Below are positions 1 to 18,103 of a DNA stretch of 18,727 nucleotides, piece after piece (within the stretch, counting starts at the first letter, position 1; each line of letters opens with the position of its first letter). The stretch lies in IMG/VR virus record IMGVR_UViG_2802429219_000002; one strand, 5' to 3'. The position numbers and the translations under genes are program-made. The stretch comes from a virus (Duplodnaviria; Heunggongvirae; Uroviricota; Caudoviricetes). The notes under the pieces were generated by a model that did not search any database, was not told the origin of the DNA, and was given only the letters and a program-made list of their open reading frames with translations.

Positions 1-90
1 ATCGAGCATTACAATGAAAACCATCCGCATAGTGCGTTGGGTTATCGCTCTCCGCGAGAATATCGACGTCAGCGGGTAATGTTAACTTAA
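1..90 (+). CDS. IS3-family (rve/DDE integrase-core) transposase, 3' fragment; only the last 29 codons plus stop are inside the window
   Basis: Frame 1 reads IEHYNENHPHSALGYRSPREYRRQRVMLT then TAA at 88-90. The YN-x-x-R/H-P-HS-x-LGY-x-S/T-P-x-EY tail is the conserved C-terminus of IS3-family OrfB transposases (recalled, not searched). The IS family member and its terminal inverted repeat cannot be assigned by eye. Confidence 0.6.
   Translation: MEHYNENHPHSALGYRSPREYRRQRVMLT
1..90 (+). mobile_element. Remnant of an insertion sequence (IS3 family) ending just upstream of trkG; true right end not determinable
   Basis: Inferred only from the transposase 3' fragment above; the element boundary downstream of 90 is not defined. 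Confidence 0.4.
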
Positions 91-254
91 GATACAACCC
101 CTGTCTGGAAATAAGGGGGCAAGAACAAAGGTGCTCAGCAATACATAACCGAACAGTGTTTAAAGTAAAATCTTAACTACAATATGATTCATTTTGATGA
201 TTGTTTCATAAGGAACAGTGAAGTAAGATCTAAGATGAGTTAAATTTTATACAG

Positions 255-289
255 TATAATCATAATGTTGCAGCAAGGTGGTTATAATT
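255..289 (+). promoter_or_regulatory. Putative sigma70 -10 elements and Shine-Dalgarno region upstream of trkG
   Basis: Two perfect TATAAT hexamers (255-260 and 284-289) and AAGGTGG (275-281) in an AT-rich leader. No convincing -35 at canonical spacing, so the promoter call is weak. Confidence 0.25.
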
Positions 290-305
290 GAAAGAATATT
301 TAGAT

Positions 306-1763
306 ATGAATACATCTCATGTAAGAGTTGTTACTCATATGTGTGGGTTCCTGGTTTGGCTCTATAGTCTTTCAATGTTGCCACCAATGGTTGTAGCATT
401 GTTTTATAAAGAAAAAAGCCTGTTCGTTTTCTTTATAACTTTCGTTATATTTTTTTGCATTGGTGGCGGAGCGTGGTATACAACTAAGAAATCTGGTATT
501 CAATTACGTACCCGTGATGGGTTTATTATAATTGTAATGTTTTGGATTTTGTTTTCTGTTATTAGTGCATTCCCTTTATGGATTGACTCAGAACTTAATT
601 TAACGTTTATTGATGCTCTATTTGAAGGGGTTTCTGGAATAACAACAACAGGAGCAACTGTAATTGATGATGTTAGTTCATTACCTCGGGCATATTTGTA
701 CTATCGGTCACAGTTAAATTTTATAGGTGGCTTAGGAGTTATTGTTCTGGCGGTTGCTGTATTGCCATTATTGGGTATTGGTGGTGCAAAGCTTTATCAG
801 TCAGAAATGCCAGGGCCATTTAAGGATGACAAACTTACTCCCCGCCTGGCCGATACGTCACGGACACTTTGGATAACTTATTCTTTATTAGGTATTGCTT
901 GTATTGTCTGTTATAGACTTGCAGGAATGCCTTTGTTTGATGCTATTTGTCACGGGATATCCACAGTTTCGCTTGGTGGTTTCTCAACTCATAGCGAGAG
1001 TATCGGATATTTTAATAACTATTTGGTTGAGCTGGTGGCTGGTTCTTTTTCCCTGCTATCGGCTTTCAACTTCACCCTTTGGTATATTGTTATTAGCAGG
1101 AAAACGTTAAAACCTTTAATCAGAGATATTGAACTTCGTTTCTTTCTGTTAATAGCCTTAGGGGTGATCATTGTTACCTCTTTCCAGGTCTGGCATATAG
1201 GTATGTATGACTTGCCTGGAAGTTTTATTCATTCGTTTTTTCTTGCCAGCTCCATGCTCACTGATAATGGTTTAGCTACGCAGGATTATGCAAACTGGCC
1301 CACGCACACGATAGTGTTTTTGCTGTTGTCAAGTTTCTTTGGGGGATGTATAGGTTCAACTTGTGGTGGAATTAAGTCACTTCGATTTCTTATACTTTTC
1401 AAACAAAGCAAACACGAGATAAACCAGCTTTCTCATCCCAGAGCGTTGTTGAGTGTAAATGTAGGAGGGAAGATAGTTACAGATCGTGTAATGAGGTCTG
1501 TATGGAGTTTCTTTTTTCTTTATACTCTCTTCACGGTGTTTTTTATACTGGTGTTAAATGGTATGGGATATGATTTTCTTACATCATTTGCAACAGTGGC
1601 TGCATGTATTAATAATATGGGATTAGGTTTTGGGGCTACTGCATCGTCATTCGGAGTGCTTAATGACATTGCAAAATATTTAATGTGCATAGCTATGATT
1701 CTTGGCCGCCTTGAAATTTATCCTGTTATTATATTGTTTTCAGGTTTTTTTTGGCGCTCCTAA
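306..1763 (+). CDS. trkG: Trk-system K+ uptake membrane protein TrkG (TrkH/KtrB superfamily)
   Basis: 485-aa polytopic membrane protein starting MNTSHVRVVTHMCGFLVWLYSL..., with repeated glycine-rich selectivity-filter-like segments (GITTTGATV, GGLGVIV, SLGGFSTHS, NMGLGFGA). Matches E. coli TrkG from memory, the Rac-prophage paralogue of trkH. The ORF track starts at TTG 288 (AAGGTGG lies 6 nt upstream); ATG 306 gives the recalled 485-aa length. Markedly AT-rich compared with the flanking phage genes. Confidence 0.9.
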   Translation: MNTSHVRVVTHMCGFLVWLYSLSMLPPMVVALFYKEKSLFVFFITFVIFFCIGGGAWYTTKKSGIQLRTRDGFIIIVMFWILFSVISAFPLWIDSELNLTFIDALFEGVSGITTTGATVIDDVSSLPRAYLYYRSQLNFIGGLGVIVLAVAVLPLLGIGGAKLYQSEMPGPFKDDKLTPRLADTSRTLWITYSLLGIACIVCYRLAGMPLFDAICHGISTVSLGGFSTHSESIGYFNNYLVELVAGSFSLLSAFNFTLWYIVISRKTLKPLIRDIELRFFLLIALGVIIVTSFQVWHIGMYDLPGSFIHSFFLASSMLTDNGLATQDYANWPTHTIVFLLLSSFFGGCIGSTCGGIKSLRFLILFKQSKHEINQLSHPRALLSVNVGGKIVTDRVMRSVWSFFFLYTLFTVFFILVLNGMGYDFLTSFATVAACINNMGLGFGATASSFGVLNDIAKYLMCIAMILGRLEIYPVIILFSGFFWRS

Positions 1764-1900
1764 TATATGGCTGATTTATAATTGTGAGTTTAATATTATA
1801 TTGACTCACTCATTGATCCAATACCTAACTTTACCAGCAACACCTCCGCCCCCAGTAGCACTGGCTGCTGGGGTGCGTTTTATTCATAAAGCAAGGCTGT

Positions 1901-2692
1901 ATGAGCGAGAAATTGAAGATCGTCTATCGCCCTTTACAAGAACTGTCTCCGTATGCACACAACGCCAGGACACACAGCCCTGAGCAGGTGGCACAACTGG
2001 TAGAAAGCATTAAGCAATTCGGCTGGACTAATCCGGTGCTGATTGATGAAAAGGGCGAAATTATTGCTGGTCACGGTCGCGTTATGGCGGCTGAAGTGCT
2101 CAAAATGGATTCCATTCCGGTCATCGTTCTGTCTGGTTTGATGGATGATCAGAAAAAGGCGTACCGCCTGGCAGATAATCGCCTGCCGATGAATGCTGGC
2201 TGGGATGAAGATCTGTTACGGATGGAGCTGTCGGACCTAATCAATGCTGATTTTGATGTCTCCCTGACAGGCTTCAGCCCGACAGAAATTGATGAACTGT
2301 TGACGGATGTTTTGCCCGGTACAGGAAATGAGGAGGAGCCGTATACGACGAAAATTGATACGCCTGTTTATGAGCCGTCGGGCGGTAAACCGGATATCAG
2401 TGAACTGTACGACGATACGAAAACACAGGAGCTGATCAGCCGGATACGTTCGGCGTCCCTTGAGCCTGATATTGAGAAATTCCTCCTGTGTGCGGCAGAA
2501 CGTCACACGGTGTTTAATTTCAGCAGAATTGCGGACTATTACGCTCACGCCCCCGCTGAAATTCAGTGTTTTTTCGAGGAGTCGGCGCTGGTGATCATTG
2601 ATTATCAGCAGGCTATTGAAAATGGATTTGTCCGGATGACGCAGCGCATGGTGGAGATCATGCATGGTGGTGAGGAGGAGGAATATGCGTGA
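1901..2692 (+). CDS. ParB-like nuclease domain (ParB N-terminal/sulfiredoxin fold) protein with uncharacterised C-terminal region
   Basis: 263-aa ORF. The N-terminus carries the ParB signature: SPYAHNARTHSPEQVAQLVESIKQFGWTNPVLIDEKGEIIAGHGRVMAAEVLKMDSIPVIVL (box II-like IIAGHGR, IPVIV strand). The C-terminus ends in an acidic tail, GGEEEEYA. Sits where I recall ynaK in K-12 Rac (unverified). Confidence 0.8.
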   Translation: MSEKLKIVYRPLQELSPYAHNARTHSPEQVAQLVESIKQFGWTNPVLIDEKGEIIAGHGRVMAAEVLKMDSIPVIVLSGLMDDQKKAYRLADNRLPMNAGWDEDLLRMELSDLINADFDVSLTGFSPTEIDELLTDVLPGTGNEEEPYTTKIDTPVYEPSGGKPDISELYDDTKTQELISRIRSASLEPDIEKFLLCAAERHTVFNFSRIADYYAHAPAEIQCFFEESALVIIDYQQAIENGFVRMTQRMVEIMHGGEEEEYA

Positions 2693-3617
2693 TGATTTTT
2701 GCGCCTTTATTCTGACTCACGGGCGACCGGACAAAGTTCTGACTTACCGGACGTTGCGTCGTGCTGGCTATACCGGGAAAATTTTTATCGTTGTTGATGA
2801 TGAAGATAAGACACGGCATCAGTACATGGCTGAATTTGGTGAACAGGTGCTGGTGTTTTCCAAAGCCGATATCGCCAGTCGTTTTGACGAAGCCGATAAT
2901 TTCGGTGACCGCCGCTCAATTTTTTACGCCCGTAATGCCTGTTTCGACCTGGCAAAACTGGTCGGGTGTAAATACTTCATTCAGCTCGATGATGATTATC
3001 ACGAGTTCCAGTTTCGGGTGGATCGCAACTATGACCAGGCCTATTTTCCGATAAGGAAACTGGATGCGATCCTTTCTGAAATGCTGGCGTACTACGAATC
3101 AATACCTGCTCTTTCCATCGCTATGTCGCAGGGCGGGGATTTTCTTGGTGACAATGGCGGCCATGCTTCGTGGGTGAAACGCAAGGCAATGAACAGCTTT
3201 ATCTGTTCGGTTGATCGACCGTTCTCATTCATGGGGCGCATTAACGAGGATGTGAATACGTACACGAATCTCGGTCGCTGTGGTGAATTGTTTATGACGA
3301 TCGGTGCTGTCCAGTTAGGGCAGAAACAGACGCAGAAAAACAGCGGCGGAATGACCGAGCTGTATCTGGATTCCGGAACCTACGTTAAAAGTTTTTACTC
3401 CGTCATGTATGCGCCGTCGTGCGTAAAAATCTCACTGATGGGTGCCAGCCATAAACGCATTCACCATCAGGTCACCAGGAACAACGCTGCAGTAAAAATC
3501 CTTCACGAAAAATACAGGAAGAAGACACCCTGCATATCAATAGGGGTGACAAATGATTCCGTATTCGAAAGTCGAGTCTCTGGCAGCGTGCCGGATGACT
3601 GCACAACAAATCGCTGA
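2685..3617 (+). CDS. Hypothetical protein; possible GT-A-like nucleotide-sugar transferase fold (two DxD-like acidic motifs); function unknown
   Basis: Start ATG 2685 is preferred over the track's 2664 because GAGGAGGAGG (2672-2681) sits 4-6 nt upstream. Its start overlaps the ParB-like gene stop by 8 nt (ATGCGTGA), suggesting translational coupling. Hydrophobic strand + acidic motifs FILTHGRP, KIFIVVDDEDK and YFIQLDDDYHEF resemble a GT-A/Rossmann-like arrangement; this is a guess by eye only. Confidence 0.65.
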   Translation: MRDDFCAFILTHGRPDKVLTYRTLRRAGYTGKIFIVVDDEDKTRHQYMAEFGEQVLVFSKADIASRFDEADNFGDRRSIFYARNACFDLAKLVGCKYFIQLDDDYHEFQFRVDRNYDQAYFPIRKLDAILSEMLAYYESIPALSIAMSQGGDFLGDNGGHASWVKRKAMNSFICSVDRPFSFMGRINEDVNTYTNLGRCGELFMTIGAVQLGQKQTQKNSGGMTELYLDSGTYVKSFYSVMYAPSCVKISLMGASHKRIHHQVTRNNAAVKILHEKYRKKTPCISIGVTNDSVFESRVSGSVPDDCTTNR

Positions 3618-3804: not shown

Positions 3805-3807
3805 CTG

Positions 3808-4902
3808 ATGAGCAGACCGGACTGGGGGGCGTTGCAGCAGGAGTATATTGCTGAATACACCCGCTCCGGTATATCTCCGGTGGCATGGTGTGAAGCAAGG
3901 GGACTGAATTACGCAACAGCCCGTCGTTACATCAAAAAACCTCCGAAAAATGCGCAGACAGAAATGCGCAAAACTGCGCAAAAAAGTGCGCAGAAAAAAT
4001 CTGCGCAGACTGCACAAAAGCGGAACGAAAAATCTCAGGAAAAAAAGCCAGTATTCGATGCGGGCCTGAATGAGGGCGACGCGGAGGAATTTTCGTTCTG
4101 TCCCGATGAATTCGGCATTTCTGACCAGCAGGCTAAGTTTGCGATGCTTGTTGCTCAGGGGAAAAAGCCGACAGAGGCGTACCGACTAGCCGGTTATGAG
4201 GGGCAAGGTGCGACAGCTAACAGCAACGCCAGTCGTATGCTTAGAAATGCCAGGGTTTTTCGCGCTATCAGCTACTTCCGCAATCAGTACCAGAAACGCT
4301 ATACCGCAGACCTGGATTTACTGGTGAGTCAGTTGATGGCCATTGTCCTGGCCGACCCCAATCAGCTTGCACAATTTCGCCGTGTTAACTGCCGTTATTG
4401 CTGGGGCGAGAATCATCTCTACCAGTGGCGCGATATAGCAGAATTCGACAAGGCAGCGGCGCAGGCTTCCAGAGATGGCAAACCCGAACCGGAATATGGA
4501 GGCCTCGGCTTTGTTGATAACGCCATACCCAATCCGGACTGCCCGAAGTGCTGCGGTGAGGGAACGGGACAGCTTTATATGGCTGATACCACTCTGCTTG
4601 ATGGGGATGCGCGGCAATTATATGCAGGGGCAAAACTCGGAAAATTCGGCGTTGAGATCCTGCTGGAGGATAAGGCTGCCGCCCGGCGTGAATTGTTGCG
4701 TTTGCTTTCTGCTGGCGGGGCTTTATGTGCAGATAAGCGGCTACAGGAACTGGAAATTGAACGACGCAGAATGGAAAACCAGAAGCTGCGCAAAGAGATC
4801 GAAACGGTGGAAGATAATGAACATCCCCAGCCTGTGGCGATCAATATTAATGTGGTTGATGCCAGAGTAAGGAGTGATGAAGATGATCTCTCCGACGCTT
4901 AA
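3808..4902 (+). CDS. Terminase small subunit (Terminase_2-like) with N-terminal HTH, lysine-rich repeat linker and Cys4 zinc-ribbon-like cluster
   Basis: N-terminal HTH (ISPVAWCEARGLNYATARRYI), Terminase_2-like segment (KPTEAYRLAGYEGQGATANSNASRMLRNARVFRAI), cysteines CRYC ... CPKCC, coiled-coil C-terminus. Lies directly upstream of and overlapping the large terminase gene. Unusually long (364 aa) for a TerS. Confidence 0.7.
   Translation: MSRPDWGALQQEYIAEYTRSGISPVAWCEARGLNYATARRYIKKPPKNAQTEMRKTAQKSAQKKSAQTAQKRNEKSQEKKPVFDAGLNEGDAEEFSFCPDEFGISDQQAKFAMLVAQGKKPTEAYRLAGYEGQGATANSNASRMLRNARVFRAISYFRNQYQKRYTADLDLLVSQLMAIVLADPNQLAQFRRVNCRYCWGENHLYQWRDIAEFDKAAAQASRDGKPEPEYGGLGFVDNAIPNPDCPKCCGEGTGQLYMADTTLLDGDARQLYAGAKLGKFGVEILLEDKAAARRELLRLLSAGGALCADKRLQELEIERRRMENQKLRKEIETVEDNEHPQPVAININVVDARVRSDEDDLSDA
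3951..4016 (+). repeat. Array of five TGCGCA palindromic hexamers (plus one TGCACA variant) separated by A-tracts, inside the terS coding region; candidate pac/terminase recognition site
   Basis: TGCGCA at 3951, 3965, 3975, 3987 and 4002; TGCACA at 4011. Start-to-start spacings are 14, 10, 12, 15 and 9 bp, each hexamer flanked by A3-A6 runs. The same DNA encodes the peptide repeat KNAQTEMRKTAQKSAQKKSAQTAQKR. Confidence 0.6.
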
Positions 4903-6184
4903 TGTGCCTCAGGCGCGATTTCTTTCAATGCCCCATAAATTTAAAGCCTATATTGCTGGTTTTGGCTCGGGCAAAACATGGGTTGGGTGTGGCGGCATAT
5001 GCAAGGGGATTTGGGAGCATCCAGGTATAAATCAGGGATATTTTGCGCCAACGTATCCCCAAATTCGCGATATTTTTTACCCTACAGTGGAAGAAGTTGC
5101 TGCTGACTGGGGATTGAACGTAAAAATTAATGAGGGAAATAAAGAGGTTCACTTTTATTACGGACGCCAGTATCGGGGAACCACTATCTGCAGATCGATG
5201 GAGAAGCCACAAACGATCGTCGGTTTCAAAATTGGTAATGCGCTGGTGGATGAACTGGACATTTTGCCGAAGGAAAAAGCCAGAACGGCGTGGCGCAAGA
5301 TAATTGCGCGTATGCGTTATAAGATTGATGGACTTCGCAACGGTATTGACGTTACAACCACGCCGGAAGGATTCAAATTTGTCTACGAGCAGTTTGTTAA
5401 AGCCGTGCGTGAAAAAACAGAGCTGGCCTCACTGTATGGTCTGGTGCAGGCATCTACTTTCGATAATGAAAAGAACCTGCCAGCAGATTACATTCCTTCG
5501 CTTCTTGAATCATACCCTCCAGAGCTGATTAAAGCCTATCTTCGAGGACAGTTTACTAACCTGACAAGTGGTACTGTTTACCATCAGTTTGACCGGAAAC
5601 TGAATAATTGCGAAGAAGTGGAGCAGCCAGGGGAGCCGATTTATATTGGGATGGATTTTAACGTTGGAAAGATGGCGGGGATCGTCCATGTGCTGCGTTT
5701 GGGGCTTCCATGTGCGGTAACTGAAATCATCAATGCCTACGATACGCCGGATATGATCCGCATCATTAAAGAACGCTTCTGGCTGTATGACGGGAATGAT
5801 TACCGGAAAGTGAGGGAGATTTATATTTATCCAGATGCTTCCGGAGATTCCAGAAAATCAAGTAACGCAAGTACGACGGATATAGCCCAGCTTAAGCAGG
5901 CTGGTTTTAACGTTGTGGTGAACAGCTCGAACCCGCCAGTAAAAGATCGCGTTAACTCAATGAATGCAATGTTCTGCAATGCCAATGGTGAGCGTCGCTA
6001 TAAAGTTAATGTGAAGCGTTGTCCGGTATATGCCGAATCTCTGGAGCAACAGGTCTGGGATGATAAGGGGGAGCCTGATAAAAAATCTGGCAATGATCAC
6101 CCGAATGATGCCGGAGGTTATTTCATCGTTAAGCAATTCCCTATTGTCAAACCGACCGGAAGAGTCACATCACTTCGGATTTAA
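4883..6184 (+). CDS. Terminase large subunit (ATPase/nuclease)
   Basis: Walker A-like GFGSGKT near the N-terminus, ~434 aa, positioned between TerS and portal. Start is ambiguous (GTG 4874, ATG 4877, ATG 4883); AAGGAG at 4869-4874 favours ATG 4883. Overlaps the terS 3' end. Confidence 0.85.
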   Translation: MISPTLNVPQARFLSMPHKFKAYIAGFGSGKTWVGCGGICKGIWEHPGINQGYFAPTYPQIRDIFYPTVEEVAADWGLNVKINEGNKEVHFYYGRQYRGTTICRSMEKPQTIVGFKIGNALVDELDILPKEKARTAWRKIIARMRYKIDGLRNGIDVTTTPEGFKFVYEQFVKAVREKTELASLYGLVQASTFDNEKNLPADYIPSLLESYPPELIKAYLRGQFTNLTSGTVYHQFDRKLNNCEEVEQPGEPIYIGMDFNVGKMAGIVHVLRLGLPCAVTEIINAYDTPDMIRIIKERFWLYDGNDYRKVREIYIYPDASGDSRKSSNASTTDIAQLKQAGFNVVVNSSNPPVKDRVNSMNAMFCNANGERRYKVNVKRCPVYAESLEQQVWDDKGEPDKKSGNDHPNDAGGYFIVKQFPIVKPTGRVTSLRI

Positions 6185-6186
6185 TT

Positions 6187-7593
6187 ATGGCTGATATATC
6201 AACACCCAACCTCGACTATAACGATATGCTGGAGGCGTGGGATATTAACGACGCATTGATGGGCGGTACGCTTGAAATGCGCAGGCAGGGGGAAAATTAT
6301 CTCCCCAAATGGCCTAATGAAGATGAAGACGCTTATAAAAAACGCCTGTCTGTGGCTACGCTACTTCCTGTGTATGAAGAAAGCATCAAACAAAATATTG
6401 GGCGCATATTTGCAGAGCCGACAGTATTGAGTGAGGAAACGCCGGAAAAAATCAGGGAATATGCAGAAAATATCGACATGGAGGGGAGCCGACTGGATGT
6501 GTGGGCGCAGCAATTTTTCAGTCTCGCATTTCAGTATGGTGTGGCACATGCGCTGGTGGACTATCCACGAACGGATATGAAAGAGATTCGGACAAAAGCC
6601 GATGAAAACGCGGCCGGTGGTCGCCCGTACGTTACGATGCTGAATCCACGCCAGGTTATTGGATGGAAATCGAAAGTTGAAAAAGGGAAAGTTGTTCTCA
6701 CTGATTTGCGTATAAAAGAGGTCATCATTATTGATGGTGATGATTTCGGGCAGAAGAAGGTGGAGCAGATCCGCCATATTATGCCCCGTCGAGTAGAAAT
6801 TTATCGACGCAGCGAAGGTACTAATGGCGAATCTGTCTGGATGCTTCATGAGTCATGGAATACCAGCCGTGATGATATTCCTCTGGTAACACTGTATACG
6901 AAGAAAACAGGGTTTATGCGTGGTACACCGCCATTGCTTAATCTTGGCTTGCTGAATATCAAGCACTGGCAAAGCCAGAGCGAGCAGGACAATATTCTTC
7001 ATGTTGCCCGCGTTCCATTGCTGGTGGCCTACGGGCTGGACAGGAATGAAGAACTGACGGTTGGTGCATCCACCGCTACGATTTTTGAGGACAGAACAAA
7101 AAATGGCCTCGAATATGTTGAACATAGTGGCGCAGCGATAGAATCTGGCGAAACATCACTTGAGAAGCTGGAAAATCAGATGCGTCATGCCGGTGCTAAA
7201 CTTCTGCGGGCTGAAAATACATCCACCAAATCTGTTGATCAGACTAATGAAGAGCGGATGCAGGAACACTCGCCGCTTTATACAATGGCGAACTCCCTCG
7301 AAGATGCCCTCGATAATATTCTCCAGATAATGGCGGAATGGAGCGGAGAGAGTTGCGGTGGCAATGTGGATGTGCGCACTGAACTGGATGTATCTGCCCA
7401 GGTGTTTGACTCATCCTCCGCGCTGGCTGTTCAGTCATTGCGTCAGGGCGGTGATATACGTCAGATTGATGCGGTTCGGGTGTTGCAGGCGTTGAAATTT
7501 ATCGATCAGGATTCCCGTCCAGAGGAAGTGATCGATGAATTAAAAAATCAGAGTGTAATGCTGATGGAAATCAATGATGCAAACCGTGAATGA
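6187..7593 (+). CDS. Portal protein
   Basis: 468-aa ORF starting 3 nt after the TerL stop and followed by an F-like head morphogenesis gene; size and position are typical of a pac-phage portal. Confidence 0.8.
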   Translation: MADISTPNLDYNDMLEAWDINDALMGGTLEMRRQGENYLPKWPNEDEDAYKKRLSVATLLPVYEESIKQNIGRIFAEPTVLSEETPEKIREYAENIDMEGSRLDVWAQQFFSLAFQYGVAHALVDYPRTDMKEIRTKADENAAGGRPYVTMLNPRQVIGWKSKVEKGKVVLTDLRIKEVIIIDGDDFGQKKVEQIRHIMPRRVEIYRRSEGTNGESVWMLHESWNTSRDDIPLVTLYTKKTGFMRGTPPLLNLGLLNIKHWQSQSEQDNILHVARVPLLVAYGLDRNEELTVGASTATIFEDRTKNGLEYVEHSGAAIESGETSLEKLENQMRHAGAKLLRAENTSTKSVDQTNEERMQEHSPLYTMANSLEDALDNILQIMAEWSGESCGGNVDVRTELDVSAQVFDSSSALAVQSLRQGGDIRQIDAVRVLQALKFIDQDSRPEEVIDELKNQSVMLMEINDANRE

Positions 7594-8689
7594 ACGGCTG
7601 CGTGATGAATCAATTGCTCATGCAGTCTGGATATCCCGCTATAGCACTGGTGTGGCTGCCAGAATGGTGAAAATACTGAATGACAGCGATGCGGAGCTTA
7701 CAGCTCGCCTGCTGGTAGCACTGGACAGCCTCGATCCTGGTAGTTTTACCGTTACGCGCCTGGAGTCACTTCTGGCGAGTGTCAGAGAGGTTAACCGCGC
7801 TGCTATTAACAGCATGTTTACCAGTCTCTCCGGAGAGCTGAACGAGCTGGCAATTTATGAGGCTGGTTATCAGTTAAGTCTGTTTGATTCTCTGCTACCT
7901 GATTTTGTTGCTGATGTTCACCCTCTGGTTGGTATATCTTCTGATGCACTTTACGCCGCTGCAATGGCGCGACCATTCCAGGGACGACTGCTCAGTGAGT
8001 GGGCCTTGGATCTTGAGGCGGATCGGCTCAGACGCATAACAAATACGGTGCGTCAGGGTTTTTTGCTGGGGGATACCAATGAGCAGATCGCAAGAAAAAT
8101 TCGGGGACATGTCAGCAAGGGATTTCAGGATGGTGCATTGCAGATGAGCCGGGCTAATGCGGCCAGCATTGCAAAAACAGCGGTTGGACATCTTGCTGCT
8201 ACTGCCCGTGAGAGTTTTGCCAGCGCGAATAATGATTTGATTAAGGGTAAGCAATGGTTATCAACGCTTGATAATCGTACTACGCCACAATGTCGAATCA
8301 GGGATCGCCTCAAATATACGCTGGATAATAAACCTGTAGGTCACAGTGTGCCTTATTTGCATGGGCCGGGAAAAATTCATTTCTGCTGCCGCTCAACGGA
8401 AACGTTCATTCTGAAATCAGCGAAGGAACTGGGTATTGATGTTCGTGATATTTCCCCGGCTGAGCGGGCCAGCATGGATGGCGTGGTGGCCGGAGATACA
8501 ACCTACAGGGAATGGTTTTTGCGTCAGCCTTACACCAGACAAAAACAGATTGTGGGGGAAACCCGGGCAAAGCTGATTCGGGATGGCGGTATGTCGCCAG
8601 ATGAATTTTACACCGATAAAGGCGAATGGCTGACGCTGAAGCAACTCCGTGAGCGTGATGCACAGGTATTCAGAAAAGCAGGGATTTAA
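7574..8689 (+). CDS. Head morphogenesis protein (phage Mu F-like / SPP1 gp7-like minor head protein)
   Basis: 371 aa, overlaps the portal 3' end by 20 nt. Central region KGKQWLSTLDNRTTPQCRIRDRLKYTLDNKPVGHSVPYLHGPGKIHFCCRSTE resembles the Mu-F family core (recalled). Confidence 0.75.
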   Translation: MMQTVNERLRDESIAHAVWISRYSTGVAARMVKILNDSDAELTARLLVALDSLDPGSFTVTRLESLLASVREVNRAAINSMFTSLSGELNELAIYEAGYQLSLFDSLLPDFVADVHPLVGISSDALYAAAMARPFQGRLLSEWALDLEADRLRRITNTVRQGFLLGDTNEQIARKIRGHVSKGFQDGALQMSRANAASIAKTAVGHLAATARESFASANNDLIKGKQWLSTLDNRTTPQCRIRDRLKYTLDNKPVGHSVPYLHGPGKIHFCCRSTETFILKSAKELGIDVRDISPAERASMDGVVAGDTTYREWFLRQPYTRQKQIVGETRAKLIRDGGMSPDEFYTDKGEWLTLKQLRERDAQVFRKAGI

Positions 8690-8709
8690 ATAAATCATTT
8701 ATTACAACA

Positions 8710-8733
8710 GGCTACCTTCGGGTGGCCTTTTTT
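8710..8733 (+). terminator. Rho-independent terminator-like hairpin downstream of the head morphogenesis gene
   Basis: GGCTACC (8710-8716), loop TTCG, GGTGGCC (8721-8727; one G-U pair), followed by TTTTTT (8728-8733). Confidence 0.6.
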
Positions 8734-8793
8734 ATTGCTGCGATCCGGATGGTGAGCAGCGTAACTGTCGGAAGACTTAAACCAGGTACTAAT

Positions 8794-9558
8794 ATGAAAC
8801 TGAAAGCGGTCGAGATTAACGGAAAACAATACGCAGAAATTGATACTGCTGGCCTGCCAGTTTATGTGCACGACGATGGTAAAGAAATCGGCTTCGATGC
8901 ACCGCTGGCGATAAAAAAAATTACAGAGCTTAATGGCGAGGCAAAAAATCATCGCCTGGCTAAAGAAGCTGCAGAGGAAAAACTGGCTAAGTTTGCCGCT
9001 ATCGAAGACCCGAAGAAGGCGATCGAGGCACTGGAAATGCTGTCAAAAATCGACCAGAAAAAGCTGATCGATGCGGGACAGGTTGACCAGGTTAAGGCAG
9101 AAATTACGAAAAATTTTCAGCAGCAATTAGATGAAGAAAAGCAACGCTCTCAGATGCTGGAGACGCAGCTTTACGATTCTATGATTGGCGGTAGTTTTGC
9201 GGGTTCAAAATATATTGCCGATAAAATTGCGATCCCGGCAGATTTATTACAAGCCCGCTTCGGGCAGGCATTCAAAGTGGAAGAAGGGAAGATCGTTGCT
9301 TATGACGCTTCCGGCAACAAAATTTATTCCCGCGCGAAGCCTGGCGAACTGGCGCAGTTTGATGAGGCGCTGGAGTTCCTCGTCGAAAATTACCCTCAGA
9401 AAGACTACATCCTGAAAGCCAGTGGCAACAATGGCGGCGGCTCCCGTCCGACACAGCATGATATTGGTCAGAAAACGATGAAACGCTCTGCTTTTGATGC
9501 ACTGGATGTTGCAGGTAAGCAAAACGCATTGAAAGACGGTATCACAATTGTTGATTAA
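8794..9558 (+). CDS. Scaffolding protein (putative)
   Basis: 254-aa charged, helix-rich protein (EAAEEKLAKFAAIEDPKKAIEALEMLSKIDQKKLIDAGQVDQVKAEI...) immediately upstream of the major capsid gene. Start ATG 8794 chosen because the track's ATG 8722 lies inside the terminator hairpin. Confidence 0.6.
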   Translation: MKLKAVEINGKQYAEIDTAGLPVYVHDDGKEIGFDAPLAIKKITELNGEAKNHRLAKEAAEEKLAKFAAIEDPKKAIEALEMLSKIDQKKLIDAGQVDQVKAEITKNFQQQLDEEKQRSQMLETQLYDSMIGGSFAGSKYIADKIAIPADLLQARFGQAFKVEEGKIVAYDASGNKIYSRAKPGELAQFDEALEFLVENYPQKDYILKASGNNGGGSRPTQHDIGQKTMKRSAFDALDVAGKQNALKDGITIVD

Positions 9559-9656
9559 CACATTTGTCAGCTTCCGGATGGGAGCTGGTGTCAGGGCTGG
9601 ATAGCTCATTACTCCATCTATTCACAATTACGCAAATTTTTAAGGAATATTTAATT

Positions 9657-10655
9657 ATGGCTGGAAATACCCTGACCGGGTTGATCCCGACTATTTATAC
9701 CGCCCTGGATATTGTATCCCGTGAGCAGGTAGGTTTTATCCCTGCGGTAGCAAAAAACGCAAAAGCTGACGCCGCAGCAAAAGATCAGACGGTAACCGCG
9801 CCAGTTGCGCCTGAGGCGAAAACCGAAGATATCGTACCGGGGCCGTCAGCTCCGAATACCGGTGATCAAAATATTGGCACTGTTGATGTGAAAATTACTA
9901 AATCCAAAATGGCACCGGTTAAATGGAATGGTGAAGAACAACTGGCTCTTGGCCCTTCAGGGACTTACAACACCATTCTGGCTGATCAGTTCAAGCAGGC
10001 TTTTCGCGCCCTTGCAAACGAGGTTGAGGCTGATCTTGGTGCGTTGTATTTCGGTGCTTCCCGCGCCGTGGGAACCGCAGGGACAACGCCGTTTGGTGTT
10101 AAAGATGATCTTTCTGATGCTGCTCTGGCTCGTCAGGTTCTGGAGGATAACGGCGCACCGACAACCGATCTGCAGATGGTGCTTGGCTCCACTGCCATTG
10201 CTAATTTGCGCGGAAAACAGTCTGTACTGTTTAAAGTGAATGAATCCGGCACTGAACAGCTACTGCGTGAGGGCGTGTTGGGGCGTCTGGAGGGATTCAA
10301 TATTCACAGTTCGGCAGGTGTAAAACGAGCGCCAAAGGTTGCTGCAACTGGTTATCTCGTGAATGGCGAGAAAAAAGAAGGCGATGTTCTTATTTCCATT
10401 GATACTGGTTCGGGGAGTATTTCTGCAGGTCAGATTGTTACGTTCGCTGGCGATCCGAATCAGTATGTTGTGGCAGCAGCGACCAGCAATCTGATTACTC
10501 TTGCAGCGCCCGGACTGCGTCAGGATCTGGCCGATGATACTGCAATCACAGTTGTTGGCTCCTTTACTGCAAATATGGCGTTTGATCGCAACGCGTTTCG
10601 CTGGCATCCCGTACTCCGGCAATGCCGGAAGGTGGCGATAATGCTGATGATGTAA
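9657..10655 (+). CDS. Major capsid protein; the 3' end appears frameshifted (likely intact reading would end at 10731)
   Basis: SD TAAGGAA 9641-9647 then ATG 9657 (the track's upstream start at 9564 has no RBS). Large protein directly after the scaffold gene. After ...TANMAFDRNAF the frame gives an atypical tail RWHPVLRQCRKVAIMLMM*, while the -1 frame continues protein-like to TAA 10729-10731. Confidence 0.7.
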   Translation: MAGNTLTGLIPTIYTALDIVSREQVGFIPAVAKNAKADAAAKDQTVTAPVAPEAKTEDIVPGPSAPNTGDQNIGTVDVKITKSKMAPVKWNGEEQLALGPSGTYNTILADQFKQAFRALANEVEADLGALYFGASRAVGTAGTTPFGVKDDLSDAALARQVLEDNGAPTTDLQMVLGSTAIANLRGKQSVLFKVNESGTEQLLREGVLGRLEGFNIHSSAGVKRAPKVAATGYLVNGEKKEGDVLISIDTGSGSISAGQIVTFAGDPNQYVVAAATSNLITLAAPGLRQDLADDTAITVVGSFTANMAFDRNAFRWHPVLRQCRKVAIMLMM

Positions 10656-10805
10656 TGAATGTTACGGACCCGATTTCAGGGATTACGTTCCAGATTGCAC
10701 TGTATCGTCAGTATCGCCAGGTGCGCTATTAAGTTGGACTGGCATGGGGTGTTTCATCAGTGAAGCCGGCACATGGTTGTCTGATTCTTGGTTAAACATT
10801 CAAAC

Positions 10806-10825
10806 GGGGCTTCGGCCCCATTTTT
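10806..10825 (+). terminator. Rho-independent terminator downstream of the capsid gene
   Basis: GGGGC (10806-10810), loop TTCG, GCCCC (10815-10819), then A and TTTTT (10821-10825). Confidence 0.65.
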
Positions 10826-10837
10826 AATGGAGGGCAT

Positions 10838-11014
10838 ATGGCCGGATTAACTAAAGAGCAAAGAGCACAGCGTGAAGCCGCACAAAAAACGCAAATTGAG
10901 TTAGTGGTTATGGTGACCGATTATCAGATGTTTCCCGGCGCACCAACTATCGCTAATGTTCATCCTGATGAAGTTGACAACTGGAAGGCTATGGGCTGGA
11001 AAACTCAGGAGTAA
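10838..11014 (+). CDS. Small hypothetical protein (58 aa), not present in the supplied ORF track
   Basis: SD GGAGGG 10829-10834 then ATG 10838; translation MAGLTKEQRAQREAAQKTQIELVVMVTDYQMFPGAPTIANVHPDEVDNWKAMGWKTQE, stop TAA 11012-11014 lying 3 nt before the next gene's ATG 11018. Confidence 0.5.
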   Translation: MAGLTKEQRAQREAAQKTQIELVVMVTDYQMFPGAPTIANVHPDEVDNWKAMGWKTQE

Positions 11015-11017
11015 CAC

Positions 11018-11413
11018 ATGATCACTTACGTGACCTGTGATGACGTTGATAATGCGTTTGGGAACGCCTGGACGAGTGAGAACGCTAAAAATAAAGCTGT
11101 TTTAATGGCTAATGCCTGGCTTAATGGCTTCAACCTGAAAATTAACCCATCCCGTATTCCGGAAGAGGTAAAACTTGCGGGAGCATATGCAGCCAGAATT
11201 GCCTCATTCGGTAAGTTGTTTCAGCAGAAAAATGATTCTGGCGTTGTTATCAGTAAAGCCGTGTCGGCTGACGGGGTCAGTGTATCGAAATCATTTGCTG
11301 AGTTGCCAGCAAACAGCACTGTATTGCTTGAACCCGATTTACAGCTTGCGATAGCACTGCTGAAACCGTACGGACTTAGTCGCTCACAAGTCAGGGTTGT
11401 GAGGGGGGGATAA
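11018..11413 (+). CDS. Head-tail connector / adaptor protein (gp6-like)
   Basis: 131 aa; N-terminus MITYVTCDDVDNAFG is typical of the gp6-like head-tail connector family (recalled); located just after the capsid gene. Confidence 0.7.
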   Translation: MITYVTCDDVDNAFGNAWTSENAKNKAVLMANAWLNGFNLKINPSRIPEEVKLAGAYAARIASFGKLFQQKNDSGVVISKAVSADGVSVSKSFAELPANSTVLLEPDLQLAIALLKPYGLSRSQVRVVRGG

Positions 11414-11796
11414 TGGGGCTTCGTGAAGAGATTCAGTCAGAGGTTGCCGCTGCTTTTGATGAGGATTTAGCGGACGCCGTGAGTGATTTTTCTGGTTCTT
11501 ACGTTACGCACCGGCACTGGGATCCTGTGACGGAAACTGGCGGCGAATCCACCGCAATCTATACCGGGCGAGGCGTGTTGACACGTTATAAGCTGGGCAG
11601 AATTGATGGGATTAATATTTTGCATGGTGACCTTAAATTAACCGCTCTGGTATGCGAGGTTACGGATAAACCCGCTGTCGACCATATTATTGAGATTTAT
11701 GATCCTGTATTAAGGCAGTTACAACGATACGAGGTAATTACAGCGAGTGTAGATCCTTCCGCATCAGTTTACTCTATCCAGTTAAGGAGAGCGTAA
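11413..11796 (+). CDS. Head-tail joining (head closure-like) protein
   Basis: 127-aa ORF whose ATG shares one base with the upstream stop (TAATG); assignment is by position in the connector cluster. Confidence 0.55.
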   Translation: MGLREEIQSEVAAAFDEDLADAVSDFSGSYVTHRHWDPVTETGGESTAIYTGRGVLTRYKLGRIDGINILHGDLKLTALVCEVTDKPAVDHIIEIYDPVLRQLQRYEVITASVDPSASVYSIQLRRA

Positions 11797-12177
11797 ATGG
11801 CAAAGGCATGGGATATAGAACCGTCAATATTTGCCGGGATGATTGAGGAAGATGTGGGGCTGAAAATTCGCTACATCGCTATGCAGATTCTTACTGCTAT
11901 TGATATTGCTGCTCCGGTTGATACCGGACGTTTCAGAAATAACAACCTGGTGTCGTTACAGCATCCCGATTTTGGTATATCTGATAACGTGGATCCGAAC
12001 GGTACGATTGCGGTTCAGCGTGGGATCGGGGTTATTTCGAAAGCTGCAAATTACGGAGTTATTTATATCCAGAATAACCTTCCTTATGCAGAGGCTCTTG
12101 AAAACGGTCATTCACAACAAGCGCCAACTGGCGTGTATGCCAACGCTTTTCATGGTGTTTTACAGGCTTACAAATGA
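11797..12177 (+). CDS. HK97 gp10-like neck / tail completion protein
   Basis: 126 aa with a PVDTGRFRNN motif characteristic of the HK97 gp10 family (recalled); ATG follows the upstream TAA directly. Confidence 0.65.
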   Translation: MAKAWDIEPSIFAGMIEEDVGLKIRYIAMQILTAIDIAAPVDTGRFRNNNLVSLQHPDFGISDNVDPNGTIAVQRGIGVISKAANYGVIYIQNNLPYAEALENGHSQQAPTGVYANAFHGVLQAYK

Positions 12178-12566
12178 CGTTTACTGAAATCAGAAATACG
12201 GTTATTTCCAGAATGACGGCACAGACGATTATTGATGGAAAAGACGTATTGTATCCGAACGCGCCAACGTTCGATCCTTCCGGTAAGTTAATCTGGGCGC
12301 GGTTAAGTAATATTCCCGGGCAGGCTGGAGTTAATGAAATTGGCGCGGGGCCGATTGTTTATCGCACGGGGATAATCATTATTCAGTTATTTGTCCCCGC
12401 AGGTTCTGGTTCAAAACTCATTACTGAGACAGCCGATAAATTGCGGGAACTGTTTGAGTTTCAGGATGACGATCGTCTCAGTTACCAGGCTGTTTCCTCA
12501 ATAGCCGTTGGCGAAAAGAATGGCTGGTTCCAGCTTAATCTTCAAATTCCATATCGCGCGCTCTAG
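12174..12566 (+). CDS. Tail terminator-like protein (gpU analogue)
   Basis: 130-aa ORF overlapping the previous gene by ATGA, immediately upstream of the major tail gene. Confidence 0.55.
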   Translation: MTFTEIRNTVISRMTAQTIIDGKDVLYPNAPTFDPSGKLIWARLSNIPGQAGVNEIGAGPIVYRTGIIIIQLFVPAGSGSKLITETADKLRELFEFQDDDRLSYQAVSSIAVGEKNGWFQLNLQIPYRAL

Positions 12567-12592
12567 CGCAATTAATGACATAGGAGGCTCCT

Positions 12593-13555
12593 GTGAGTTC
12601 AGGTGCAAAGGTTATCTCGGCATTTATCCGGGAGACGGTTGCAGGCACTACGCCAGCAAGTGGTGACTGGAGTTTATTAAAACGCACAAGCTGGGGAGTA
12701 AAACCCACCCAGAATAAAGGCGAAAATAATGAGATTGGTGGCTCCCGGATGGCTCAGGGGGCGACGCCTGGCACTGTGGATGTCGGCGGTGATGTTGGTA
12801 CCAAATTTCGCTGGGGTCAACATGATGATTTTCTTGCATCCTGTTTCGGCGCGGAATGGTCAGGCGATTCTCTGACAATGGGGAATGAGCGAATAACATT
12901 TTCTCTAGCGACCTATGCGTCCGATGTCGGAATTGCCTCTGTCGTCAGAGGAGCGCAGGTTGGCTCATGGAAAATGCAGATCCCTAACGACGGCGATATT
13001 ACAGCGACCGTAACCTTTGCCGGACTGGACTGGGAATCAAAGGCCGATGATACGAATTTTATCAAAGGCGAACCTGTGGATAGTGCAGGAAAGCTACGTT
13101 ATTCGTTTAAGGAGGTTTCAGCAGTAAGCCTGAATGGTGTTGCCGGAGGTAACGGTTTTTGTATCGACAGTTTTGATATTCAGTTCGATAACAAACTCCA
13201 GACACAGCGTTGTATCGGGACTGGCTCGCCTTATGCAGGAGCAAATATTCCGACTACTTTTACACCGTCCGGTACGGTGACGCTTTCATGGTCTAAAGCC
13301 GCGTGGGAAATCTGGAGTAAAACACTGACTGGAGAAACAGTTCCGTTCAGCTTTACGCTTTCGAATGGAGAGGGGGCATACACTTTCAGTTTCCCGAAGG
13401 TTCAGGTGTCAGGTGAATGGCCTGATGGGGGTAATAGCGACATTATCCAGGTTCAATTGAGCATTACCGCAGCAGATGAAGCACCTACGATAACCAGAAA
13501 AAAAAATTCCCCGGCTGCCGTGATCGCAAAAGCCAGTGCTGAGGCGATTAGTTGA
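12593..13555 (+). CDS. Major tail (tube) protein
   Basis: GTG start 12593 preceded by AGGAGG 12582-12587; 320 aa, Gly/Ser/Thr-rich beta-type composition; lies between the tail terminator and the G/GT chaperone genes, as in lambda (V). Confidence 0.7.
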   Translation: MSSGAKVISAFIRETVAGTTPASGDWSLLKRTSWGVKPTQNKGENNEIGGSRMAQGATPGTVDVGGDVGTKFRWGQHDDFLASCFGAEWSGDSLTMGNERITFSLATYASDVGIASVVRGAQVGSWKMQIPNDGDITATVTFAGLDWESKADDTNFIKGEPVDSAGKLRYSFKEVSAVSLNGVAGGNGFCIDSFDIQFDNKLQTQRCIGTGSPYAGANIPTTFTPSGTVTLSWSKAAWEIWSKTLTGETVPFSFTLSNGEGAYTFSFPKVQVSGEWPDGGNSDIIQVQLSITAADEAPTITRKKNSPAAVIAKASAEAIS

Positions 13556-13603
13556 TTTTCCGTTATTCCTCCTGTGGTACTGCCCTACAGGGGGACGCAT
13601 TGA

Positions 13604-14065
13604 ATGAGGTTATGGATGTTTATTCTTAATCAGAAAATTATCATTGGTGGAGAACGCTGGTTTACGCCAATGAAGGACTTAAAACCTGTAGACGGGTTAA
13701 AACTGTTGGTGGCAAGCAGCGATAACGATCAGTATCGCTCCCGTAATGCATTAATCCGTCGCCACATTGAGAAAATGGATGCCAGTTTGCACGTCGGAAC
13801 GAAGGAGTTTGATATTTCAAAGGTTTCCGAGGTGGATTCTGTTGATGATTTACTCATTGATAATGCCGCTCGTTATCTGCTGAAAGACTGGAAAGGGGTT
13901 GGTGAACTGGTTAATGGTGTTGAGGTTGCACTGGAATATACGGCAGAACGAGGGATCGCGCTGCTTAAGCAGAATCCAGAGTTGTACTGGCAGATCCTTG
14001 CAGAAGCAGCCAGCATCGCCCAGGGTAAAGAGCAGCAGAAGCAGGATACGATAAAAAAGCCATAG
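13604..14065 (+). CDS. Tail assembly chaperone (lambda gpG analogue)
   Basis: SD AGGGGGA 13589-13595 then ATG 13604; 153 aa, acidic, ending ...EQQKQDTIKKP*. The slippery heptamer A_AAA_AAG sits 4 nt before the stop. Confidence 0.75.
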   Translation: MRLWMFILNQKIIIGGERWFTPMKDLKPVDGLKLLVASSDNDQYRSRNALIRRHIEKMDASLHVGTKEFDISKVSEVDSVDDLLIDNAARYLLKDWKGVGELVNGVEVALEYTAERGIALLKQNPELYWQILAEAASIAQGKEQQKQDTIKKP

Positions 14066-14373
14066 CTGCCCAGCGGTGGTTATCGGAGTTCGGGGGAGAA
14101 AGGGGGGAAAAGGCAAGATGGAAGCGAGAAAAACTCAGGTTGCCACCGATACCGGAACCAGAAATAGACCCGGTGCTTAAGGAGTTGTTGTACGCCTATT
14201 CGGTAATATCCCGTGCCCGACGTTATGCTGGAATGGCTGGGGTGCCTTTGCCTTTATCTCTGACAGAGATAAATGAATATTTAGCCACTCATCCGGTATT
14301 GATTGAGCGCGATGAATTTGAAGCAGTGATCTTTGCACTGGATGACCAGTATTTTCAGGAGCAGTGTGTGTAG
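13604..14373 (+). CDS. Tail assembly chaperone GT fusion made by programmed -1 ribosomal frameshift (join 13604..14059 and 14059..14373)
   Basis: The -1 frame is open from the slippery site through 14373 (107 codons), reading KKAIAAQRWLSEFGGERGEKARWKREKLRLPPIPEPEIDPVLKELL...; the track shows this ORF only from an internal TTG at 14140. Confidence 0.65.
14053..14059 (+). promoter_or_regulatory. Slippery heptamer A_AAA_AAG for the G/GT -1 frameshift
   Basis: Zero-frame codons ATA AAA AAG (I K K) at 14051-14059; X_XXY_YYZ pattern with an open -1 frame downstream. Confidence 0.65.
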
Positions 14374-14493
14374 TTGTTAATTACGTACACTCTGTTACAG
14401 AGATGTGATGGTGTCTTTAATTAAATCGATGATGCTCCTGGAGAAAAGCATTGCGTGGCCTCGTAATCGCTATATCTACTATTATGTCGCCTG

Positions 14494-14518
14494 AAACCCA
14501 CTTCGCGGTGGGTTTTTT
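14494..14518 (+). terminator. Rho-independent terminator-like hairpin in the T-to-tape-measure intergenic region
   Basis: AAACCCAC (14494-14501), loop TTCGCG, GTGGGTTT (14508-14515), T-run to 14518; followed by SD AGGAG 14525-14529 and the tape measure ATG 14539. Confidence 0.55.
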
Positions 14519-14538
14519 GTTGTCAGGAGTTTTAATAA

Positions 14539-17500: not shown

Positions 17501-17772
17501 CTGGTGTTTTTGGTGAGGCTGGACCGGAAGCTATTATGCCATTAACACGAACTTCCGATGGTTCTCTTGGTGTCAGAGCTATTAATAGTAAAAGTGGTAA
17601 TGGAGGCGGAGATATTACCTATGCCCCTGTATACCAAATCACTATTCAAAATGACGGCCAGAATGGAGAGATTGGCCCTCAGGCAATAAAAGCACTTATG
17701 GGGATGGTTGATCAGCGGGTGCAGGGCAATCTGTTAAATATGCGACGTGATGGGGGAATGTTAAGTGGCTAA
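14539..17772 (+). CDS. Tail tape measure protein (lambda gpH analogue)
   Basis: 1077-aa ORF, long Ala/Gln/Glu/Lys-rich coiled-coil-like N-terminal half, hydrophobic central segment ([27 protein letters not shown]), located between GT and M. Confidence 0.9.
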
Positions 17773-18103
17773 TACGGAAGAATTTCACTGGTTACCAGAG
17801 GATGGAATGAAAACAGAAAATAAACCATCGATAAAAACTGTAAGATTTGGTGATGGTTATGAGCAACGAAGTCCAAATGGACTTAATCATTCTCTGCGCG
17901 TTTTCACCTGTGATTTCAAAGTTGAGGCGAATGAACGTGATTCATTTGAAAAATTTTTAGCCCGGCATGAAGGCTATAAATCTTTTTTTTGGCGCCCGCC
18001 GGGTATTAACAGAAAAATCAGAGTGGTGTGTCGAACGTGGTCAGCGACAGAACATATCACCTATACCGATTTTTCGTGTCAGTTTGACGAAGTGGTGATC
18101 TGA
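17765..18103 (+). CDS. M: Minor tail protein M (lambda gpM-like)
   Basis: Translation ...[35 protein letters not shown]...[19 protein letters not shown]... parallels lambda gpM (recalled ...FRWKVKPGMD...VRFGDGYSQRAPAGLN...). GTG 17765 is taken as start because the extension aligns with the lambda M N-terminus; ATG 17807 is an alternative. Overlaps the tape measure stop. Confidence 0.85.

Follow-up and report, generated by a model that had tools for sequence, protein, structure and literature searches.

The 18,727-nucleotide (nt) stretch of DNA analysed here (IMG/VR virus record IMGVR_UViG_2802429219_000002, Caudoviricetes; below, "the window") carries trkG, which encodes the membrane subunit of Trk, a K+ uptake system. 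Our comparisons indicate that positions 128-1830 very probably form a self-contained, AT-rich trkG cassette of the Rac prophage, about 1.7 kb long and made up of a control region of ~140-180 nt, the open reading frame (ORF) and a short tail. The window as a whole appears to be the undeleted form of Rac, and Escherichia coli K-12's copy of Rac would be this arrangement minus 11.56 kb. The parts of the cassette and the element that follows it are listed here; L001 is the prophage of E. coli AH19B041.

128..168, + strand: last 41 nt of the Rz (i-spanin) lysis gene, severed from its 5′ part by an insertion sequence (IS); colinear with L001 20001-20041, the end of a gene annotated there as 'lysis protein' (19577..20041)
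169..305, + strand: AT-rich (24-30% GC) upstream region travelling with trkG, the expected promoter site; conserved in the E. albertii cassette
306..1763, + strand: trkG, membrane subunit of the Trk K+ uptake system; 485 amino acids (aa), Pfam TrkH, K-12 match
1764..1830, + strand: 3′ tail of the cassette, likewise AT-rich at 26-28% GC; a hairpin (GTGAGT...ACTCAC), also AT-rich, at ~1785-1810; from GC profile and folding
1847..1887, + strand: GC-rich hairpin, then UGCGUUUUAUU, a putative intrinsic terminator between trkG and the ParB-like gene; terminator scan match at 1850-1873

The limits of the cassette were set by phages that lack trkG and by a copy of the gene at another locus. The Rac-type prophages of E. 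coli KO11FL (E. coli W) and STEC005 contain lysis genes, short ORFs and the ParB-like, TAGT, terS and terL genes, but trkG is absent from them. They become homologous to the window from 1831 and 1847 onward, where the GC step lies, and do not have the 1764-1830 tail. The E. albertii copy (93% identical in amino acids, 84% in nucleotides) does not reside in Rac but between copC/copD and rsmF, where its chromosomal neighbours are ptrB, exoX, copC/copD, an NleF-like gene and rsmF, and its homology is restricted to window positions 126-1767. The ~180-nt upstream region is shared with E. albertii in blocks of identity that include a TATAAT hexamer (255-260) and the motif AAGGTGG (275-281). In phage Rac-SA53, the trkG slot between endolysin and terS is occupied by LT-IIa enterotoxin genes. 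The original prediction had placed trkG in the position of a lysogenic-conversion moron. This placement was borne out by the trkG-less relatives, which share the downstream backbone, and by E. albertii, which has the cassette alone, and the view that trkG would act as a moron is supported.

Enterobacterales commonly encode TrkG-clade proteins at 61-79% identity (E. fergusonii, Citrobacter, Pectobacterium, Enterobacter, Serratia and Xenorhabdus). The copies of E. fergusonii, Enterobacter, Pectobacterium and Citrobacter have a non-phage chromosomal setting, and that of Serratia lies in an island alongside IS debris and a P4-type primase. The notion that TrkG-clade genes are generally phage-borne was rejected, as none was phage-borne in the five contexts examined. 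The nearest relatives outside Rac, from E. fergusonii (79%) and Citrobacter (78%), are chromosomal and less AT-rich. Rac appears to have captured one member of a mobile accessory TrkG clade. The chromosomal setting in these hosts would also fit an origin of trkG as host DNA taken up by imprecise excision (specialised transduction) instead of as a moron inserted in the late region. We consider such an origin highly improbable: trkG lies ~20 kb from attL, in mid-prophage between the lysis and packaging genes; its limits are tight, with 126-1767 common to E. albertii and the phage backbone resuming at 1831; and no host genes flank it.

Base composition and codon usage of trkG

With a GC content of 37.9% and a GC content at third codon positions (GC3) of 32.1%, trkG is the most AT-rich stretch of the window, the rest of which has 47.7% GC. 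The other ORFs ranged from 0.41 to 0.52 in GC and from 0.34 to 0.55 in GC3, and the chromosomal K-12 paralogue trkH has values of 0.531 and 0.626, respectively. None of 308 segments of 1458 nt taken from 1901 onward fell below a GC of 0.426 (mean 0.474, standard deviation 0.019), which places trkG at z = -5.0 relative to segments of equal length. This sliding-window run upheld the claim, made originally from the letters alone, that the gene is visibly AT-rich. A profile in 80-nt steps places the start of the low-GC block at ~128-170 and its end, an abrupt one, at ~1830, with a GC of 0.365 over 128-1830 versus 0.477 over 1831-18727. Its most AT-rich parts are the non-coding flanks, 169-305 and 1764-1830, at 24-30% GC.

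Low GC might reflect a hydrophobic, Phe/Ile/Leu-rich polytopic membrane protein and not foreign origin. The coding strand is indeed strongly T-rich (AT skew of -0.2 to -0.3 over 400-1800), and GC at second codon positions in trkG (0.397) is not below that of several neighbours. However, the GC deficit is greatest at third positions, where the value of 0.321 compares with 0.626 in trkH and 0.72 in an Enterobacter homologue; the non-coding flanks are even more AT-rich than the ORF; and the GC step coincides with the onset of homology to trkG-less phages. The GC3 values and the flank composition already refute the hydrophobic-composition reading, which is almost certainly incorrect. Because the Enterobacter homologue combines 70% identity with its high GC3, the protein sequence does not force the AT-richness.

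Rare E. coli codons amounted to 128 per 1000 in trkG, the highest load in the window, compared with 24-102 in its neighbours and 33 in trkH. When codon usage was pooled over the structural genes and ORFs were tested for fit to it by likelihood, trkG also scored lowest (-1.212), but two short ORFs were nearly equal (-1.211 and -1.202). The description of trkG as codon-atypical thus holds for its rare-codon load and its fit, but it does not set the gene apart from these two ORFs and is only partly separable from GC3. Codon atypicality is essentially the AT-richness signal again, consisting mostly of GC3 and rare-codon load.

The E. coli (Rac) and E. albertii copies (window 306-1760 against 6001-7455 of the E. 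albertii locus) differ by a synonymous divergence (dS) of ~0.97, with a ratio of non-synonymous to synonymous divergence (dN/dS) of 0.04 and a GC3 of ~0.32 in both. Both of these low-GC3 copies reside in genomes of ~50% GC, whereas the 70%-identical Enterobacter homologue (GC3 0.72) has a composition entirely like that of its host. It is conceivable, if somewhat unlikely, that the AT-richness of the cassette is maintained rather than being the fading trace of a recent transfer. If it is maintained, this could mean that selection keeps the transporter under H-NS-dependent control, its Na+/K+ flux being costly when unregulated. Alternatively, the persistent low GC3 could mean repeated sampling from an unsampled low-GC donor pool.

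The TrkG protein and the expression of its gene

The only long ORF in the interval 306-1900 is 288/306..1763 on the + strand, which encodes 485 aa from ATG 306 or 491 aa from TTG 288. The interval that had been proposed for the gene, 306-1900, agrees with the ORF at its start and overruns the stop codon by 137 nt at its end. The stretch 1764-1900 is intergenic, and the next ORF, which is ParB/Srx-like, begins at 1901. No ORF of at least 60 aa was present on the opposite strand under trkG, and an Rfam scan of the whole window found nothing. The trkG product matched Pfam TrkH (PF02386) with an E value of 1.8e-143 and 479.1 bits over profile positions 3-500 of 502, the curated cut-off of this family being 27 bits, and it matched the PDB TrkH chains 3pjz and 4j9u with E ~6e-121 over residues 7-485. 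At the DNA level, the gene is 98.8% identical to K-12 trkG (b1363), with 18 differences in 1458 bases, and shares 99.9% identity with the copy of E. coli APEC O1. The Pfam match and the alignment to K-12 trkG establish the ORF as TrkG, as it had been named at the outset; a family for this protein, PHROG 1916, already exists. The codon changes relative to b1363 are 12 synonymous and four non-synonymous (I268L, H304P, S330N and C458Y). At two of these four sites, the window copy has the family-consensus residue (L268 and Y458, where K-12 has I and C).

The start codon annotated in K-12, ATG 306, has no Shine-Dalgarno-like sequence ahead of it, and a strong one, AAGGTGG at 275-281, is located 6 nt ahead of TTG 288. 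TrkG-clade homologues are mostly 491 aa long and have no Met at the K-12 start position, and the longer form is used in PHROG 1916 and in the phage record ON470595. The annotated start may be six codons short.

We placed TrkG of the window in an alignment with E. coli TrkH and 11 TrkG-clade proteins, numbering the first sequence from TTG 288. The invariant motifs were TTTG, the two glycines of the LGGFST stretch, DNG (of which the glycine is invariant), NNMGLG and GGCxGSTxGGxK, corresponding to columns T119-T121, G122, G230/G231, G328, N442/N443, G445, G447 and G352-K363. In terms of the 3pjz structure, we take these columns to be the four P-loop filter glycines and the glycine-rich gating loop of domain 3. 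In addition to the value for E. albertii given above, dN/dS was 0.08 against K-12 and 0.07 against E. ruysiae. These ratios point to strong purifying selection on trkG, also in hosts whose Rac makes no particles.

K-12 TrkG mediates Na+-dependent K+ uptake and some Na+ uptake and uses TrkA; its gene showed promoter activity in a reporter and was partially, not fully, repressed by H-NS/StpA (PMC9898762). Genomic SELEX revealed a constitutive RpoD (sigma-70) promoter peak at trkG, and its authors described the gene as inserted into Rac 'together with its promoter' (PMC5811629). The test proposed at the outset, for trkG expression independent of late transcription, has in effect already been performed in K-12, whose late region is truncated and whose trkG is nevertheless functional (PMC5811629, PMC9898762). 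The 178 nt at 128-305 differ from K-12 at three positions, two of which (236 and 267) fall within 169-305. TATAAT hexamers occur upstream of trkG at 255-260 and 283-288. A consensus promoter scan of positions 1-4000 gave 6 matches versus 8.3 expected in shuffled sequences, and the only match upstream of trkG was a weak one (9/12, at 159-188).

We propose that TrkG would form the ion-conducting membrane part of the Trk system for K+ uptake and would work with host TrkA. Its cassette occupies a place in a lambdoid prophage between Rz and the ParB-like gene, with the terminase genes beyond. In the lysogen, trkG would be transcribed from its own sigma-70 promoter and partly damped by H-NS acting on AT-rich DNA. 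In lytic growth, gene order suggests that it would also be read through within the Q-dependent late transcript. The hairpin at 1847-1887, which has a minimum free energy of -25.2 kcal/mol (z = -4.1), could stop trkG transcription in the lysogen and let Q-modified polymerase pass. The copy of Rac in the window would itself be decaying, with Rz interrupted by an IS and the capsid gene frameshifted.

A different use of the gene would be one mainly for the benefit of the phage, in which trkG is transcribed late in lytic growth and sustains K+ uptake and late protein synthesis instead of serving the lysogen. The gene has the orientation of the late genes and lies inside the late block, between Rz and the terminase genes; about half of the trkG carriers keep a complete structural module too; trkG is present in deposited phage records; and Salmonella without trkH is resistant to two phages, though via RpoS (PMC8744999). 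However, trkG is intact and under apparently strong purifying selection in K-12-type Rac, which cannot make particles. Moreover, it has promoter activity of its own and contributes to K+ uptake in uninduced K-12 (PMC9898762, PMC5811629), and sister phages do without it. We regard a use mainly for the phage as quite unlikely.

Several points weigh against the view of trkG as a self-contained cassette expressed from its own promoter. The two TATAAT hexamers are perfect matches without good -35 partners. Transport, TrkA dependence, the promoter and the H-NS effect are carried over by analogy from the K-12 allele, from which the window copy differs at four residues and at 3 of 178 upstream positions, and the IS, with 178 nt between it and the ATG, could alter how the promoter or H-NS behaves. 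The left limit appears to be fixed to ~35 nt only: the homology of DLP12-type Rz stops at the equivalent of window position 93, and that of E. albertii starts at 126. The putative terminator sits past the point where backbone homology resumes, and a diverged counterpart of it, with a T6 run, is found in trkG-less relatives; the hairpin (1847-1877) would belong to the phage backbone or to the junction and is not clearly the cassette's own terminator. Finally, the donor of Rac trkG was not found in the databases searched.

Rac identity of the prophage and damage in this copy

The features of the window outside the cassette are the following; L007 and L038 are two further related prophage loci, L038 being the closest relative (99.4%).

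1..127, + strand: 3′ end of an IS3-family (IS2-group, ISEc48-like) element, transposase stop codon at 88-90; 97-100% identical to ISEc48/IS3-family transposase ends
1901..2692, + strand: ParB/Srx-like gene, 263 aa, of which K-12 ynaK is a 5′ remnant; Pfam ParB_N, PHROG 620 at 3.7e-89
2685..3617, + strand: TAGT-family glycosyltransferase ('GREB1-related' in some records); Pfam PF20691 at 8.1e-35, PHROG 842 at 3.6e-102
3808..18103, + strand: packaging, head and tail genes of a Rac-type prophage; Pfam matches, colinear at 98.3-99.4% with L001, L007 and L038

Positions 128-18727 matched the AH19B041 prophage at 98.65%, colinearly and without rearrangement. That prophage adjoins ttcA, and its left arm contains intR, xisR, ralR, recT, recE, kilR and sieB. 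Its rightward strand carries, in one orientation, ydaT, ydaV, a gene resembling a Q-type antiterminator, two tRNAs, essD-rrrD-Rz, trkG, the ParB-like gene and the terminase, head and tail genes. Since the first letters of the window already belong to the IS, the left arm and attachment site of its own prophage lie outside it; it is the AH19B041 prophage that was seen at ttcA with Rac left-arm genes. The closest relative has ydaT/U/V upstream and sitBCD downstream.

K-12 Rac matched window positions 128-2154 (97.8%) and 13714-15473 (99.9%). Because K-12 matches both sides of 2155-13713 and nothing between, K-12 Rac would be a deletion derivative of the arrangement in the window. The deletion was mapped to the base: 2154 is joined to 13714 at ~1425630 of NC_000913.3, and 11.56 kb (2155-13713) is gone. 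At the junction, ynaK, made up of 254 nt from the 5′ end of the ParB-like gene, runs into ydaY, the 3′ portion of a tail assembly chaperone gene (PHROG 313), and the deletion accounts for both K-12 genes as remnants that were fused. Within the tape-measure gene, at 15473, homology to K-12 is lost a second time. The original prediction had set this prophage apart from Rac. That distinction did not survive the comparison: with the same slot and 97.8-99.9% identity to K-12 Rac, the contrast is one between a deleted and an undeleted copy of one family.

Bases 1-129/134 match the ends of ISEc48-family and IS3-family transposase genes at 97-100% in many E. coli records, and Rac sequence resumes at 128 with AAGGTGCTC. 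The target of the IS was an AAGGT site in Rz; 41 nt of that gene remain up to its stop codon, and 178 nt separate the IS from the trkG ATG. No match to the exact IS/Rz junction was found in complete E. coli genomes or GTDB species representatives. Irrespective of the sequence further upstream, the IS cuts the lysis cassette and separates the late genes from the late promoter. It had been claimed that trkG lies between an IS remnant and the packaging genes. An IS is present at the left edge, and only its 3′ end, be it that of a complete element or of a remnant, falls in the window; the gene order stands as well, except that the ParB-like and glycosyltransferase genes intervene before the terminase. 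In E. coli 23CRST010 (locus L037, 2698-4027), an IS2 of opposite orientation sits in this very AAGGT target at the 3′ end of Rz. The two insertions, by different IS2-group elements, suggest a possible hot spot for insertion at the cassette's left boundary.

A second lesion lies in the gene for the P22-type major capsid protein, which at 10600 has lost 1 nt that L001 and L007 possess. Its frame shifts ~65 codons before the end, and the resulting ORF, 9564/9657..10655, stops short of the expected end at 10796. The capsid gene of L038 is annotated as intact. No complete E. coli genome shares the deletion; accordingly, the frameshift was rejected as a lineage marker, and it represents either an inactivating mutation private to this source or else an error of sequencing. 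The remaining structural ORFs have the lengths annotated in relatives. The morphogenesis genes had been judged largely intact, and this is true of gene content but not of function, given the IS in Rz and the frameshifted capsid gene.

These lesions raise the possibility that trkG is here a silent passenger on a dying prophage, with its expression changed or lost through the IS 178 nt upstream. The IS at 127/128 and the frameshifted capsid gene would fit such a state, and neither the IS junction nor the capsid lesion occurs in any other complete genome. The trkG ORF is intact, however; this copy has the family-consensus residues L268 and Y458 in place of those of K-12; and the 178-nt upstream region is kept, with its three changes from K-12. 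We consider a silent passenger very unlikely.

The genes of 3808..18103 encode TerS, TerL, the portal, a MuF-like protein, a scaffold-like DUF6651 protein, the P22-type capsid, head-tail proteins, the tail tube, the chaperone YdaY and the tape measure. One 127-aa head-tail ORF (11413-11796, corresponding to L001 31287-31670) is called 'glutamate 5-kinase' by RefSeq in one genome and 'hypothetical protein' in another; the former label is probably an annotation artefact. A mosaic joint lies at ~17954-18727, where lambda-like tail genes M/L of HK630-type phages match at ~90% and GC rises up to 0.57. The ParB/Srx-like and TAGT genes (1901-3617), located just before terS, may form a DNA-modification or packaging-linked pair. 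No TET/JBP gene was found near them. PHROG 842 bears the name 'beta-glucosyl-HMC-alpha-glucosyltransferase'.

Distribution and comparison with known systems

trkG was present in 1551 of 5426 complete E. coli genomes. At least 80% of positions 1764-3700 was found in 889 of the complete genomes, and at least 80% of the 18.6-kb late region (128-18727) in 694. Ten GenBank phage records (ON470581-ON470616, ON032529) contain trkG together with this structural module, and one is annotated with 'Rac prophage repressor'. The low GC of trkG and its location in Rac were stated previously with reference to a 1991 description (PMC9898762). Intact or active Rac-type prophages have been reported in other strains (PMC6379469), and the active Rac-like phage KingRac is located at ttcA (PMC6731689). 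The presence of trkG in Rac, its low GC, its own promoter, its partial repression by H-NS and the existence of full-length Rac carriers are already known, and the discovery value of our analysis is accordingly little. The gains are clarifications: the 'cryptic' Rac of K-12 is now mapped base for base as an 11.56-kb deletion derivative; the limits of the cassette (~126/128 to 1767/1830) are set by trkG-less phages and by the E. albertii copy at another locus; and this copy of Rac, despite its complete look, is inactivated at two places, if the lesion at 10600 is a mutation and not a sequencing error. It was mildly unexpected that the E. coli and E. albertii genes, at a dS of ~1, both still have a GC3 of ~0.32.

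Compared with K-12 Rac, the window has trkG in the same slot between Rz and ynaK, nearly the same 178 nt upstream (3 differences) and the same downstream hairpin. K-12 differs in being without the 3′ part of the ParB-like gene and the TAGT, terminase, portal, head and tail-tube genes (2155-13713). The IS in Rz and the capsid frameshift, for their part, are features of the window that K-12 is unable to display. Full-length Rac-type prophages and phages (E. coli 13E0767, AH19B041, APEC O1 and 042; ON470595 vB_EcoS-683R6; ON032529) are 98.3-99.4% identical and colinear over 128-18727 and have trkG, and they differ from the window in their uninterrupted Rz and intact capsid gene. TrkG resembles TrkH of E. 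coli and Vibrio parahaemolyticus (3pjz, 4j9u) in family, length and filter and gating motifs, at 41% identity. In contrast to TrkH, it falls in a separate clade, and K-12 TrkG is Na+-dependent and also takes up Na+ (PMC9898762).

Toxin cargo occupies late-region slots neighbouring the trkG slot in Rac-type relatives. STEC005 has an ADP-ribosyltransferase gene and an AB5 B-subunit gene between the Q region and holin (locus L006, 1901-3119), and Rac-SA53 has pertussis-like toxin genes as well as LT-IIa (locus L004, 4665-5896 and 7687-8827).

A literature search joining trkG with the moron concept returned irrelevant papers only. That concept, as applied to lambdoid phages, reportedly goes back to Juhala and Hendrix in 2000, and lambda bor is a moron downstream of Rz. 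Like lambda bor and the LT-IIa genes of Rac-SA53, the latter of which use the same lysis-terS slot, trkG is an extra gene of deviant composition among the genes of a late operon, in a mosaic backbone, with a promoter that is its own in K-12 and probably also here. Unlike these morons, the trkG cassette has a putative terminator only, not clearly its own, and it carries no virulence or exclusion factor but a subunit of an ion transporter, of housekeeping type and dependent on host TrkA.

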